DNA of 42,110 nucleotides from positions 1 through 42,110 of the IMG/VR virus record IMGVR_UViG_2541047875_000007; one strand, written 5' to 3'. This document shows, in pieces, positions 1,159 to 33,586 of the stretch. Source of the stretch: a virus (lineage: Duplodnaviria; Heunggongvirae; Uroviricota; Caudoviricetes). The translations under genes and the position numbers were made by a program. Within the stretch, counting starts at the first letter, position 1; each line of letters starts with the position of its first letter. Under the pieces are notes generated by a model that was not told the DNA's origin, ran no database searches, and saw only the letters and a list, made by a program, of their open reading frames with translations.

Positions 1159-1182
1159 ACCACCTTAACCACTATCGAAGAG

Positions 1183-1216
1183 CACAAAGCCTTGCAATCC
1201 AGTGCAAAGCTTTGTG
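1183..1216. repeat. Nested inverted repeat (13-bp arms, one internal mismatch) 25 nt downstream of the int stop
   Basis: CACAAAGC-c-TTGCA / ATCCAG loop / TGCAA-a-GCTTTGTG read directly from the sequence. Confidence 0.5.
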
Positions 1217-1314
1217 TGTCTCAGTTTTGTTTCATAGGTAATCATGCGTTCACTACGATGCAAGAATCCATACCAAATTTTATTTAAAACTCACAAATAC
1301 ACTAGATAAAAACA

Positions 1315-1337
1315 ATCCCGCAGTTTTCATGCGGGAT
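1315..1337. terminator. Hairpin between the convergent int and tailspike genes; likely intrinsic terminator for the tailspike transcript, possibly bidirectional
   Basis: 8-bp stem ATCCCGCA/TGCGGGAT with 7-nt loop; on the minus strand it is followed by TGTTTTTAT. Confidence 0.5.
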
Positions 1338-1355
1338 ATACTGCATTTATTGCAA

Positions 1356-3839
1356 CTACATTGCCATTAATATAAACATAGCCAATTCGTCATAACGAAT
1401 TCCGTAGCGTCCACCTGCTTTTTTTACAAGAATCATATTTCCTGTTTTATATTGAGAATAAATTTTCTCACCTGTATCAGGATCTGTGCTCTCTTCAGTT
1501 ATCACCTCTTCATCCCATACGTCTGGCCATTCATCGTAACACCAAAAAGCATATTGCTCAGGATTTAAACCACGCTTTCTAAGAATATCTCCTACGGTTT
1601 GAGCGCCAACTCCAAAATGATACCTTGATAACTCCAATCCTTTAAAATTAATCGACTCATTAAACCTGAACTTGCATATAATTCCCTTTATTTCCAGCGC
1701 AGCATCACGCTCTGCCTGAGTAATGTCATATATTGTTTTAAGTGTTTCATCTGATGTGCTTATAGTCCCGGATGCAGAATAAATCTGAGCCCATCTAAAT
1801 GATGGTGCACCAAGAGATTTGCTGTTATCAATAATTGGTGAAAAATTACCTTTAATGGCAATATTTCCAGAGTCGCCGAATATATTAATAACTGTAGAGT
1901 CATCACCATGGTTTTTTACGCTTAAGTTTCTTGATGAAATATTTATATCTTTGTTATATCCACTAACATTAATCCATCTTTTACCATCAATGTGATACCC
2001 GTAAATATTTCCGTTTGATTGTTCGTCAGGTGACTCTCTAAGAACAATAGCATCTACTCCAGACGACCATTGTATTTTTGTATCTGTAGGCCTCCAGTTC
2101 TTTATAATGAACGAACCATCAGTAAACTCCGTTTTTATTTGTCTATTGTCTACAAATGCGTCTCTTGGTTTAAACTCACTTGTGTTAACGCTGCTCTGAA
2201 GATCAGAAGCAAAAAATCTAAGATTTCCTGTATAACCCTGAGTCTCGGTCAGGTTATACGCAATCATAATTCCATTTTCAAACTCAGATGATGTTATTTT
2301 AACATCACGGCAATCACCAAAAATGCAATTTCCTTTATCAAATGTTGTTTGAGCTTTGAATTTATCAAACCTTAAATTACGAACAGGGAAACCATCAACC
2401 TCTAATGCAAAGGATGCAGGAAGGCCAAAGTATTCTGATGGCTTACCTGATGTATGATCAAGAGTAGTGGCTACTGTATTCTCAAAAACAGTCCCGCTAA
2501 AATTATTACCAATTGACGGAAACCTGATTACACTTATTGTACCTTGTATTTCAGGAGAAATACCAGATAGTGTGATGTTAGTTCCATCAAATGATGCATC
2601 TGAATACGTATATACTGATTCACTGCCAGCAATTTTAAACTGTTTAACTGAAGTTATTCTCATCGACTTTTTATGTTTAAATGTCACTGAGCTTTCAGTA
2701 TTACTTACAAGATCAATCTGAGGGCTATTCCTTATCGCGATTCCTGACTGGACATAAACGTTATTAAAGTGCGTTTTTTCAGGATTTCCCTTCATTGAAA
2801 GGCTCCCGTCATTTTCTGTCAGTAGTAGTCCTTTTACCCTCCAATAGCCGACAATCTGTACGTTATCAATAACTGAATCACAGCTATCGTATACATGCAA
2901 CCCTATATCCCAGTTATCACCCAATGAATAAGAATCAGGGTTATTGTATCCTTCAATACCATTTTTACTTACCATTATTCTCAGATTGCGTAACTGTGAT
3001 GCCCTGTTGATACTAACAGCTACGCTCATGGCTTTTGGTGTAGCAGGAGTAACACCTACAGAATCTTCATTCGTAAACTCAGTGAACTTACAAGATATCC
3101 CTTCAACAATTTTAACCGGTCTTTCATTAGAGATGTTAAAAAAATATTTGTTTTTTTCTCCATCACCAGTAAATACAAGATGGGTTCCTTTACTCCAACT
3201 TTTTAATAATCTTTCAGGCGCTGGTCTATATGTATCCCAATAATCAATGCCAGATCCAACCAGTGAACACCCCTCAGGAATGTTAATATTCTTCTTGATG
3301 ATGCATATTCCTTCCGGAATTGTTATAACCGACCTTCCAGAGTTTAAAGCTTTAATAAAAGCATCTGAATCATCTGTTTCCCCATCTATTTTTGCTCCCC
3401 ACCCTCTAACATCTCCACAATCTCTCCATCGTGCCATCTGCAACTCAGGATATTTTTTAGCGCCATCTGGATCTTCTAATTGCTGCCGTAGCTGATCGGG
3501 GTCATACTTCAGCACATTGGGAAAATAAAACTGCTGCGCACCATACGCATCATAAACAGCCATAGAATGGCCTTGCACGGTAACGAATTTGGCAATCTGT
3601 CCGTTATATACCGGATATCCGGCAGCGTTAATGATGATTGGTTGCGAAACAGGAACGTGAGAGCCGTCTTCGTTCTCTACATAAACCTGAATCTGGTTTT
3701 CTGGATTTACCGGGTCAGTGTCAATTTTACCGATATAAATTTTGCCATTGGCATTTGCTTTAAACGAGCGAGCTAAAGTAAATAACTGACTTGGTTGTGA
3801 AACAACTACGTTGTATAATTGTTCTGGCATAATAAACAT
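1356..3839 (-). CDS. Tailspike protein: P22 gp9-type N-terminal head-binding domain, divergent central beta-helix receptor-binding domain, C-terminal intramolecular-chaperone (peptidase S74-like) domain
   Basis: 827-aa ORF. N-terminus [11 protein letters not shown]...[40 protein letters not shown]...[14 protein letters not shown] matches the P22/HK620/Sf6 tailspike head-binding domain. C-terminal region contains TSTSDETLK...[13 protein letters not shown]...[10 protein letters not shown] resembling the S74 chaperone motif. Confidence 0.9.
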
Positions 3840-3852
3840 TCCGGAGAAAATA

Positions 3853-4353
3853 ATGAGTAAGAGACGTCACGAGGTAGTAACTCGGGAGCGCCTTATGGAG
3901 GTTCTCGATTACAATAAAGAAACAGGAATTTTCACTTGGAAAAAGAAATTAAGCGCCAGAGGTGCTGTTGGGAAAGTTGCTGGCACAATTTCTTATGGAT
4001 ATAACGCAATTAATATTGATGGCGTAAGATATTTTGCACATAGACTTGCCTGGCTGTATGTATATGGCGAATGGCCCAAACAAGAGATTGACCACATTGA
4101 TAGAAACAGAAGAAATAACGCAATCTCAAACCTTAGGGATGTCAGCAGAGTCGTAAATGCATTAAATGTCGGACCTCGAAATAGCAATGCTGGAATCAAG
4201 GGGGTAACTTTCTGTCAAGCCAGAAATCAATGGCAAGCTCAGATAAATGTCTCAGGTAAAAACATAACCCTTGGGAGATTCAACACCATTGATGAAGCGG
4301 CTATAGCTTATAAGGCAGCAAACATGGTTGCTGACCATCTGTTGAGTAGGTAA
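3853..4353 (+). CDS. HNH endonuclease with C-terminal AP2-like DNA-binding domain (homing-endonuclease-like)
   Basis: ORF-track ORF 3811-4353 trimmed to ATG 3853 preceded by GGAG. Contains [13 protein letters not shown]...[18 protein letters not shown] (HNH) and GVTF...QWQAQI...[16 protein letters not shown] (AP2-like). Confidence 0.7.
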
Positions 4354-5686: not shown

Positions 5687-5941
5687 ATGGCTAGAGATGA
5701 TCCGCACTTTAACTTCCGCATGCCTTTGGAAGTAAGAGAAAAATTAAAATACAGAGCAGAGTCAAATGGTAGATCAATGAACTCAGAATTGTTGCAAATC
5801 GTCCAAGATGCTCTATCGAGACCATCTCCTGTAAAAGGTTATCGCAATGAAGCTGAACGATTAGCCGAGATGCAGGCTGAACAGTTCAAGTCTGTGGTAT
5901 TTGAGACACTTAAAAACATGTATGGCAAGGATGCAAAATGA
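5687..5941 (+). CDS. mnt: Mnt repressor (maintenance of lysogeny)
   Basis: 84-aa product MARDDPHFNFRMPLEVREKLKYRAESNGRSMNSELLQIVQDAL, Arc/MetJ-like ribbon-helix-helix N-terminus as in P22 Mnt; GGAG 7 nt upstream. Confidence 0.9.
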   Translation: MARDDPHFNFRMPLEVREKLKYRAESNGRSMNSELLQIVQDALSRPSPVKGYRNEAERLAEMQAEQFKSVVFETLKNMYGKDAK

Positions 5942-6519
5942 TCGATTACAACCCAGCAAAAAAAGAAATCATCGCAGCTAAAAAGTGCCTAGAGCAGATG
6001 AAATCATCTACAAACCATGATGATTTTGAAATGCACTGGCGAGAATGTCTTGGGCATATAGAAAAGTCTTTCAGTAAGTTGCTCTGTGCAACAAAGCCGG
6101 TTAGTGGAAAATTTAGCAGCCACTTCAACCAAAAGTTCATGCTTAGAAAAACAGACAAAACACTTGCTTACCTTCACCAAGCAAGAAATGCTGATCATCA
6201 TTCCACTATGGAAATCTCAAAACTTGAACCTCCTTATACTACTCTTGGGGCATTTCCTGGAGCAAGAAGCCATTATATTAAAGAGTTAATCATTGATTCA
6301 ACAGGGAAAATAGCAAAATACGAAGGCGACCCTATGATAGTTGAGTTTCATCCAGCAACAACTATGCCTATAACCGTAAGAAACCAAGGCAAAGATTATC
6401 CACCTCCAACAGAACATCTTGGCGAAAAGCTTGTTGATATACATCCATCTGTTCTTGCCCATCTCGGTATACAATTTTATGAAAAATGGATAGATGAGTC
6501 GTGTGCAACGTTTAGATAG
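5938..6519 (+). CDS. Hypothetical protein (193 aa), translationally coupled to mnt
   Basis: ATG overlaps the mnt stop (ATGA); AAGGA 6 nt upstream; no family recognised. Confidence 0.7.
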   Translation: MIDYNPAKKEIIAAKKCLEQMKSSTNHDDFEMHWRECLGHIEKSFSKLLCATKPVSGKFSSHFNQKFMLRKTDKTLAYLHQARNADHHSTMEISKLEPPYTTLGAFPGARSHYIKELIIDSTGKIAKYEGDPMIVEFHPATTMPITVRNQGKDYPPPTEHLGEKLVDIHPSVLAHLGIQFYEKWIDESCATFR

Positions 6520-6748
6520 TTATTTTTGATAATTTCAAGTATTTCCTCTTGACTTTGATTTACCCAAACGTGATCACACTCATGAAACCAGATTATGCTT
6601 CCTGTTTCGCCTTGTGCAATATAGGTGATCATGTTTTCATTAACAATTATTACTGAGTTATCATGTGCGTAATTTAGTTTTATCAATTCGCATATCCTAT
6701 CGTGACAAAGTAACTAGAAAAACTAAAGAGGTTGGTGTGTCTGATTCT

Positions 6749-7231
6749 ATGAGTTACGCTGTGCTAGTTGCCGCAACTCTATTTATGGGGATAGGGTTGC
6801 AGATTGCGTGGTTCTTTTTTTCTAGTTTTATTAAACGCAAAAGAATTGAATCAAGGATATCTGAGATTTCTATTGCCATAGGGAAAAATGCTGAAAATCC
6901 AGAGAATGAGACCTGCGCACTTAATTACCTTAAAGAAAAGTTTTCCCCTGAAAAATTTGAAAATAGAATTACTGATGCTCTTGGATTGGTAATATCAGTA
7001 ATTCATATGCCACTAAGTTTGCTGATAACAGTGTGGTACTTCGCCATGATCGCCGGAAGAATATTTGGTTTCATGAATATAGAGCCTGTAGTTCTTTGGG
7101 TTCCAATGATACTGCAACTGTTGTTAAGCGTTGCTATCTTTATTTTTTCTGTTTTTATAAAAATTGTCTTTGGAAGATACCCCGGAGAAGCTAAGGGATT
7201 TAATAAAGAATTCATAAAAACTATAAAATAA
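6749..7231 (+). CDS. Multi-pass membrane protein at the position of P22 sieA (possible superinfection exclusion); start uncertain
   Basis: Several hydrophobic segments ([58 protein letters not shown]). Alternative GTG start at 6737 has a better-spaced AAGAGG than ATG 6749. Confidence 0.55.
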
Positions 7232-33401: not shown

Positions 33402-33404
33402 GCA

Positions 33405-33432
33405 CTGTGTATTCATTCCAACGAGTGAATAC
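33405..33432 (+). repeat. Perfect 9-bp inverted repeat with 10-nt loop
   Basis: GTGTATTCA-TTCCAACGAG-TGAATACAC read directly from the sequence. Confidence 0.5.
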
Positions 33433-33496
33433 ACGGAGCAATGTCGCTCGTAACTAAACAGGAGCCGACTTGTTCTGATTATTGGAAATCTTCTTT

Positions 33497-33521
33497 GCCC
33501 TCCAGTGTGAGGGCCTTTTTA
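33497..33521 (+). terminator. Candidate intrinsic terminator upstream of the cIII-like gene
   Basis: GCCCTC-CAGTGTG-AGGGC followed by CTTTTTA. Confidence 0.55.
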
Positions 33522-33586
33522 TATGCATACCAATAACGCTTCACTCGAGGCGTTTTCGTTATGCAATCAAACAGAAGGAGCATCCT

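Follow-up and report, generated by a model that had tools for sequence, protein, structure and literature searches.

The P22-like phages CUS-3, HK620, Sf6 and P22 share an N-terminal tailspike domain, and the endosialidase of CUS-3 was found on phage K1F as well (PMC5380687). In the CUS-3-like homologue cluster P0092 (3,581 member sequences), PF09008 is found with endosialidase domains and PF13884, and PF09008 occurs together with PF13884 in about 20 of the 120 listed homologue clusters, several of which have hundreds of members. A three-module tailspike is neither new nor unusual for P22-like coliphages. Here, we analyzed a stretch of 42,110 nucleotides (nt) from a tailed virus (IMG/VR record IMGVR_UViG_2541047875_000007, positions 1 to 42,110; hereafter the window), which is a P22-like temperate prophage, and the tailspike gene that it encodes at 1356..3830 on the minus strand. 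We consider it quite probable that the product is a P22-like tailspike made of a virion anchor, a beta-helix body and a self-removing chaperone, and that it is most likely specific for the group 2 capsule K14 of Escherichia coli.

The gene of the original prediction is real: a single long open reading frame (ORF) occupies 1356..3839 of the window on the minus strand and encodes 827 amino acids (aa). Its nucleotide sequence was 100% identical to one gene of E. coli Combat2C1 and one of FDAARGOS_1256, both annotated as "phage tailspike protein", and genes 98.4-99.1% identical over at least 96% of the length were found in 18 more genomes, for a total of 20 carriers among 5,426 complete E. coli genomes. 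RefSeq starts the protein at the second ATG (Met4, nt 3830), which gives a coding sequence of 1356..3830 (stop codon 1356-1358) and 824 aa identical to WP_021549864.1; judged from the alignment, the Met4 start also appears to fit the start of P22 gp9 best. Residue numbers below are those of the 827-aa ORF, and RefSeq (824-aa) numbers are 3 lower. The strings quoted earlier from this protein were found in it (SDETLK at 696-701, 10-residue strings at 741 and 813, and a 12-residue string at 146), except that the motif once spelled TSTS reads ISTS. The proposed three-module organization was recovered in full, each module by independent tests, and the head-binding and chaperone matches are much stronger than chance would give.

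The first module, a P22/Sf6-type head-binding (virion attachment) domain, spans residues 4-116 (3492..3830, minus strand). The claim that the first 115 or so residues are P22 gp9-like was borne out by a PF09008 match over residues 4-116, covering profile positions 1-113 of 113 (E 2e-64; 215.3 bits, cut-off 24). In a PDB sequence search, the closest solved relatives were Sf6 gp14N (7sg7, E 7e-61) and P22 gp9N (E about 1e-47), with identities over the head-binding domain of about 89% and 62-74%, respectively. Residues 121-127 mark the end of the resemblance to HK620 and P22, and the Sf6 match runs on to residue 261 at 45.6% identity. Residues from about 117 to 146 (3402..3491, minus strand) form a putative alpha-helical neck or linker, delimited by the end of the head-binding similarity and the start of the similarity of the exchangeable body; the match to phage SD2 begins at residue 117.

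The second module (residues from about 147 to 652; 1884..3401, minus strand) is the predicted polysaccharide depolymerase and receptor-binding domain. The only Pfam match in the body covers its first coils (PF12708, residues 144-199, 27.2 bits against a cut-off of 27). An AlphaFold2 monomer model, built from a 63-sequence alignment, reached a mean predicted local distance difference test score (pLDDT) of 82.5 and showed a helical neck at about residues 114-147, followed by a long run of short strands to about residue 660, with a pLDDT mostly between 85 and 97. The modelled fold agrees with a right-handed parallel beta-helix of the pectin-lyase type. Several acidic residues are conserved in the family alignment, for example D305, D308, E351 and E477 (824-aa numbering). 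The guanine-plus-cytosine (GC) content was 36.5% in the body and 37.1% in the C-terminal domain, compared with 42.7% in the head-binding domain and 47% in the whole window, and the low GC of the first two fits an imported cassette.

The third module had been proposed to be an autoproteolytic chaperone of the endosialidase type, and this proposal stood. It spans residues 696-827 (132 residues, 15.3 kDa; 1359..1754, minus strand), rather than the 131 residues at 1359-1751 given earlier, when Ser696 had been placed on the mature side. A PF13884 match to residues 696-756 (profile positions 1-56 of 58) starts exactly on Ser696, and close homologues pass the threshold of this family in precomputed Pfam annotation. 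The decisive evidence for the predicted S74-type domain is the similarity of residues 655-827 to solved chaperone structures in phmmer, namely Kp7 gp51 (7y5s, E 2.9e-16), 9vvr (E 9.1e-14), T5 pb1 (4uw8, E 1.2e-12), AS12 gp42 (6eu4, E 2.8e-11), the K1F endoNF chaperone (3gw6, E 4.7e-9) and the phi29 gp12 chaperone (3gud, E 9.1e-7). Ser696 aligns with the serine replaced by engineering in K1F (Ser911Ala, 3gw6) and T5 (Ser1264Ala, 4uw8), and Lys701 aligns with the catalytic lysine of both (K1F Lys916, T5 Lys1269). In T5, Lys1269 activates Ser1264, and the oxyanion hole comes from Arg1250 of the neighbouring chain, between Asp1239 and Thr1263 (PMC4690869). At the sequence level, Asp671, Arg682, Thr695, Ser696 and Lys701 align one-to-one with T5 Asp1239, Arg1250, Thr1263, Ser1264 and Lys1269. 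Among the 63 homologues, Thr695, Ser696 and Lys701 are each conserved in 61, Asp697 in 58, Asp671 in 47 and Arg682 in 46. The catalytic motif Ser696-Asp-Glu-Thr-Leu-Lys701 (S-D-x-x-x-K; 1737..1754, minus strand, with the Ser696 codon at 1752-1754 and the Lys701 codon at 1737-1739) also occurs in MYRF (S578-D579...K583).

The structure-prediction check that had been suggested gave a concordant result. The chaperone region was modelled with a pLDDT of 77-94 per 10-residue block, mostly above 85, as three helices, two long beta-hairpins and a C-terminal helix, a predicted arrangement like that of the T5 chaperone (PMC4690869). Foldseek matched the model to 3gw6 (E 1.4e-9), 4uw8 and 3gud (template-modelling score 0.73-0.74), with a probability of 1.00 for each. 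Directly before this domain, residues 653-695 (1755..1883, minus strand) make up a short stalk that contains Asp671 and Arg682 and was delimited by a sub-threshold PF12219 match and by alignment to 4uw8; it is expected to form a triple beta-helix in the trimer.

Cleavage had been placed after Ser696. In the mature T5 fibre there is no density for Ser1264, and the same holds for K1F, whereas the phi29 model, less convincingly, lets the mature chain end with the serine (PMC4690869). The C-terminal product of MYRF begins at the serine S578. Because of the T5, K1F and MYRF precedents, the expected scissile bond by analogy is Thr695|Ser696, one residue earlier than first proposed, so that the serine would leave with the chaperone. 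The computed products are Met4-Thr695 (76.6 kDa) and Ser696-Met827 (15.3 kDa). For Kp7 gp51 and AS12 gp42, the solved models include 505 of 668 and 587 of 716 residues, respectively, and end before the part of the chain that aligns with the chaperone; these model lengths agree, as indirect support, with a loss of the C-terminal domain in question.

From the neck (residue 117 to 150, approximately) to the C-terminus, the body and chaperone form a cassette with homologues on other phage backbones, behind adaptors such as PF18668 (Ackermannviridae-type), PF03906 (T7-type), PF12571 and an epsilon15-type N-terminus. The cassette is 57% identical in Justusliebigvirus SD2 and 45% identical in Vectrevirus DIJ06P1, both with other N-terminal adaptors, and at such identities the substrate may differ. 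In Uetakevirus Phi05_1387 B, the identity is 91% over residues 149-697, and epsilon15-like prophages together with Phi05_1387 B reach 91-99%. The presence of the cassette on several backbones indicates that this receptor-binding unit moves between phage types.

In the Phi05_1387 B record, which is flagged UNVERIFIED, the homologous gene is split into two ORFs (L002 3366-4754) that diverge right after the SD motif of the chaperone (…SINTSDGREKV…). The split is probably a sequencing frameshift, and a truncated chaperone could also account for it.

We then compared the surface polysaccharide loci of the carriers. The rfb clusters of four of them, typed by the wzx/wzy labels of the Prokaryotic Genome Annotation Pipeline, were O6 in Combat2C1 and FDAARGOS_1256, O15 in O15_8X and O5 in DP051. 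The O-antigen, for which a single common O-type would be expected, was therefore set aside as a candidate receptor. The DP051 prophage (NZ_CP156034.1 1843553-1890985) lies between sbcB and dacD, about 45 kb from the O5 antigen cluster and not at argW, the attachment site in Combat2C1, which implies that phages of this tailspike-bearing type can have a different integrase module. In Combat2C1, a group 2 kps cluster occupies the end of the pheV island, and its region 2 consists of a CatB-like acetyltransferase gene, a gene for a 760-aa protein and galE. The same three genes were found between kpsT and kpsS when DP051 (O5) was checked directly. The 4.4-kb region 2 was present at 80% coverage or more in 107 of the 5,426 genomes, and seven tailspike carriers were among the best 60 of these 107 matches.

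Co-occurrence was assessed with a joint query of 1,501 nt of the tailspike body and 701 nt of the 760-aa capsule gene against the 5,426 complete genomes. Each of the 20 carriers matched the query at two or more separate places. In 16 of them the tailspike alone had given one place, so the second must be the capsule fragment; for the remaining four, the count rose from two places with the tailspike alone to three with the joint query, and since at most two of the three can be tailspike-related, the capsule fragment is present there too. Nine further genomes carry the same body (99.3-99.5% identity over 1,353 nt), annotated as "tail fiber domain-containing protein"; the ECONIH2 copy lies in an epsilon15-like prophage and adjoins holin and endolysin genes. 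Region 2 was found in eight of these nine genomes with the body on an epsilon15-like backbone, and all eight were also recovered in the region-2 search. Overall, the capsule fragment was present in 28 of 29 body carriers compared with 80 of 5,397 other genomes (Fisher p = 1.5e-48, a value that ignores phylogeny and overstates independence). The association spans three O-types (O5, O6 and O15), two integration sites and two phage backbones. Carriage followed one K type irrespective of O type, the pattern of capsule-specific tailspikes of the CUS-3 type.

The four genomes with three joint-query places (Combat2C1, NZ_OZ040490.1, E57 and ECE170) seem to hold two copies of the K14-associated body, probably one on a P22-like and one on an epsilon15-like prophage. 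If so, two temperate phages with the same receptor specificity would reside in one cell. In addition, the region-2 galE of Combat2C1 (L014 11693-12711) is annotated as frameshifted, whereas the DP051 copy (L015 35064-36083) is intact. The frameshift may reflect capsule loss or alteration in the lysogen, or it could be harmless, since there are further copies of galE, including one in the O6 cluster.

The assignment of this capsule locus to K14 draws on gene content and published tables. The 760-aa region-2 protein has an N-terminal GT2-type domain (PF10111, E 7e-32) and a PF05159 domain of the KpsC/KpsS family of 3-deoxy-D-manno-oct-2-ulosonic acid (Kdo) transferases, and the other two genes encode a GalE-type epimerase and a hexapeptide acetyltransferase. 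This gene content indicates an O-acetylated disaccharide polymer of Kdo and a sugar supplied by a 4-epimerase. The K14 repeat is beta-N-acetylgalactosamine-(1-5)-beta-Kdo (beta-GalNAc-(1-5)-beta-Kdo) with O-acetyl groups. A phmmer search with the 760-aa K14 polymerase returned no matches among solved structures. K14 belongs to the Kdo-containing types with GT99/GT107-like domains and is among the four most frequent capsule types with the greatest sequence type (ST) diversity (PMC13171606). The kpsF-kpsM interval measured 13,916 bp here and 13,918 bp in the K14 reference cluster, in which gene K14_8 encodes 761 aa with an N-terminal nucleotide-sugar transferase domain (PMC13171606 supplement). 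The K14 structure was solved from an O6:K14:H31 strain, as cited in the same supplement, and isolates of ST127 O6:H31 and of ST131 O25:H4 clade B were typed K14 (PMC13171598). JJ1886 (ST131) carries the same kps region 2. K52, which the combination O15:K52 had suggested, was rejected, as the published K52 K-specific genes are numbered to 13 and region 2 here has three genes, one of them Kdo-transferase-like. The case that region 2 is the K14 locus is strong but indirect.

The original prediction held that the central domain matches neither P22 nor HK620 and therefore implies a different receptor. This interpretation was supported, and its second part was refined by co-occurrence with the K14 locus to a probable K14 capsule, rather than an O-antigen, as the receptor. 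Hence, the tailspike is most likely a K14 capsule depolymerase, and the enzyme may cleave the beta-Kdo or the beta-GalNAc linkage, with no characterized close relative. The literature searched, which did not extend to older subscription literature, contained no account of a coliphage enzyme specific for K14. On balance, we lean towards regarding it as the first identifiable E. coli K14-specific depolymerase, a mobile cassette shared by two or more temperate phage families (P22-like and epsilon15-like), which would circulate only in K14 strains such as ST127 O6:H31 and part of ST131.

According to the mechanism that we propose, three chains of about 92 kDa each would be made, and residues 696-827 would trimerize and nucleate the folding of the triple-beta-helix stalk and the beta-helix body. 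In a correctly formed trimer, Arg682 of the neighbouring chain, with Asp671 and Thr695, would complete the active site; Lys701 would then activate Ser696, and the Thr695|Ser696 bond would be cut. This would free the 15.3-kDa chaperone and leave a mature subunit of about 76.6 kDa ending in ...SGTIST. The head-binding domain would dock the trimer on the tail hub, as in P22 gp9 and Sf6 gp14, and the body would bind and depolymerize the host surface polysaccharide, giving the virion access to the outer membrane. That polysaccharide would most likely be the Kdo-containing group 2 capsule K14 and not the O-antigen.

Several observations count against this account. In the Pfam check that had been suggested for Peptidase_S74, PF13884 missed its gathering threshold (19.6 bits against a cut-off of 22, E 0.0012), which is a narrow miss and not an absent signal. 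PF12219 (End_tail_spike) also stayed below threshold, with 20.4 bits against a cut-off of 25 over residues 653-695 (profile positions 118-160 of 160). The AlphaFold2 model is a monomer in which the stalk is poor (pLDDT below 50 at 675-690, 824-aa numbering). The head-binding domain (residues 1-110) reached a pLDDT of only 31-53 despite its very strong homology to solved structures, likely because only part of the alignment includes it and its fold depends on the trimer; the low value does not mean that the domain is absent. Both a hydrolase and a lyase are candidate activities of the beta-helix. The K14 call was made by gene content, cluster length and published tables and not by alignment to the K14 reference. 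The association takes no account of shared ancestry, and the carriers include several near-clonal strains (E20, E50, E57 and E67). One genome, GF43, has the body on an epsilon15-like backbone and lacks the K14 capsule fragment. Finally, we infer the cleavage, the enzymatic activity and the K14 substrate from domain composition, catalytic-residue conservation, predicted folds and co-occurrence with the K14 locus.

The alternative that survives best is that the K14 co-occurrence reflects hitch-hiking or shared ancestry and that the true receptor is another glycan, colanic acid or a protein. Besides the uncorrected phylogeny and the clonal carriers, it can draw on PHROG 8280, which is labelled 'colanic acid degradation' and matches residues 10-368, and on the wca cluster found in all hosts examined. 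Nevertheless, we consider it improbable: the association is seen in at least three O-types, at two integration sites and on two unrelated phage backbones, and with 0.6-1 Mb between the prophage sites and kps, it cannot be due to linkage. For colanic acid in particular, no K-type preference would be expected, since wca is nearly universal, and the PHROG 8280 score comes largely from the shared head-binding domain under an annotation that is itself unverified.

Still less probable is an alternative in which the tailspike is specific for the O-antigen, as in P22, Sf6 and HK620, and lineage structure produces the capsule association as a by-product. Most characterized P22-like tailspikes are O-antigen endoglycosidases, and the body has the same beta-helix fold; however, a single O-specific enzyme could not serve the three unrelated O clusters of the carriers (O5, O6 and O15), which all occur with the same kps region 2. 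The gene neighbourhood bears on this point as well. In P22 and Sf6, O-antigen-modifying genes (gtrABC, oac) are located in the region between int and the tailspike gene. Here, the tailspike stop and the integrase gene are separated by only 197 bp (window 1159-1355), with a terminator inside, and no gtr or oac gene lies between them, in keeping with a phage that makes no use of the O-antigen. The least probable alternative, that the C-terminal domain stays in the virion uncleaved as a distal binding or structural domain, could appeal to the sub-threshold S74 score and to the 2 of 63 homologues that lack the Ser/Lys pair, but all five T5 catalytic-site residues are conserved, the aligned region is missing from the Kp7 gp51 and AS12 gp42 models (by model length), and the T5 protein is unable to block infection when uncleaved, its binding tip being masked by the chaperone (PMC4690869).

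The K14-associated tailspike gene is encoded in a P22-like virion module and adjoins int, as expected for a P22-type tailspike. In E. coli FDAARGOS_1256 (O6, with a K14-type kps), the prophage occupies the argW/intS site, and the first 27.4 kb of the window are 99.5% identical to the Combat2C1 prophage, which abuts tRNA-Arg and yfdC, that is, the argW site. The Combat2C1 prophage is annotated with IntS, the tailspike, an HNH endonuclease, an antirepressor, two Arc-family repressors, DNA-transfer (ejection) proteins, the tail needle knob, gp10, gp4, a P22-family capsid, scaffold, portal and terminase. Its annotation was rejected as a stand-in for the whole window, which differs in the early region at 27.4-33.7 kb and is 100% identical there to FDAARGOS_1256 (NZ_CP069451.1). 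The tailspike genes of the window and of the Combat2C1 prophage are 100% identical despite the differing early regions. Within the gap before the integrase gene, a hairpin followed by a T-run (1315..1337, minus strand), 19 nt past the tailspike stop codon, resembles an intrinsic terminator and may end the tailspike transcript ahead of that gene.

Some neighbouring features were also recorded. The Combat2C1 sister prophage has an IS100 element (istA/istB) inside a replication gene (L004 30758-32559), in addition to its different early region, and the element is absent from the window. A gene for an endonuclease with HNH_3 and AP2 domains, of homing-endonuclease-like type, lies divergently just upstream of the tailspike gene (3895-4353, plus strand); its longest ORF starts at 3811 and overlaps the tailspike start. 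The Combat2C1 relative contains two more HNH endonuclease genes (L004 34707-35886), and window 33402-33555 aligns to L004 35171-35324. Being free-standing and next to a tailspike cassette that can be exchanged, such an HNH gene could promote the movement of the cassette.

Two ORFs of 193 and 188 aa (window 5938-6519 and 6665-7231, plus strand) are located between the Arc/Mnt-like immunity genes and the ejection-protein genes, and the GC content of window 6001-7000, in the region of these ORFs, is 36.5%. P22-like phages keep superinfection-exclusion or surface-modification genes between the immunity and ejection genes. A search for a capsule-modifying enzyme analogous to CUS-3 NeuO, limited to these two ORFs, gave no Pfam match. 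They could encode a capsule-related function of lysogenic conversion.

The architecture alone matters little, as it is the standard receptor-binding cassette swap of P22-like and many other phages, and the RefSeq label is already tailspike. The new result is that carriage of the cassette follows the K14 capsule and not the O-antigen. In human disease, K14 counts as one of the four or five most common capsule types of E. coli, and it ranks second in estimated invasive potential, with an odds ratio of 8.9 (PMC13171598). A K14-specific depolymerase, if confirmed, would serve for capsule typing, as an anti-virulence enzyme and as an engineering part for therapeutic phages, and would be a ready-made reagent to type or strip one of the K types of highest estimated invasive potential. 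The predicted cleavage site defines an expression construct, namely the full-length protein, with expected self-processing to Met4-Thr695. The locus is also a clean genomic example of E. coli prophage tailspikes that track K type and not O type, which is relevant to genome-based prediction of host range.

Compared with P22 gp9, Sf6 gp14 and HK620 gp9, the tailspike has the same head-binding domain (62-91% identity), the same position by int/att and the same role in the virion, and its body is likewise a trimeric beta-helix of the depolymerase kind. The chaperone resembles those of K1F endoNF, T5 pb1, phi29 gp12, Kp7 gp51 and AS12 gp42 in the S-D-x-x-x-K motif, the upstream Asp and Arg, the predicted fold and the placement directly after a triple-beta-helix stalk; unlike here, those proteins have other bodies and other virion adaptors, and identity to them is only about 20-30%. 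CUS-3, the P22-like K1-specific prophage of E. coli RS218, shares the P22-like backbone, the three-part layout and the C-terminal PF13884 chaperone, and its head-binding domain is 83% identical over residues 4-166. The CUS-3 body, in contrast, is a sialidase beta-propeller with PF12217, PF12218 and PF12195 that acts on polysialic acid, whereas the body here is of the pectin-lyase beta-helix type and its predicted substrate is K14. If the K14 assignment is right, both tailspikes target a group 2 capsule and not an O-antigen, and the phage described here is the probable K14 counterpart of the K1-specific CUS-3.

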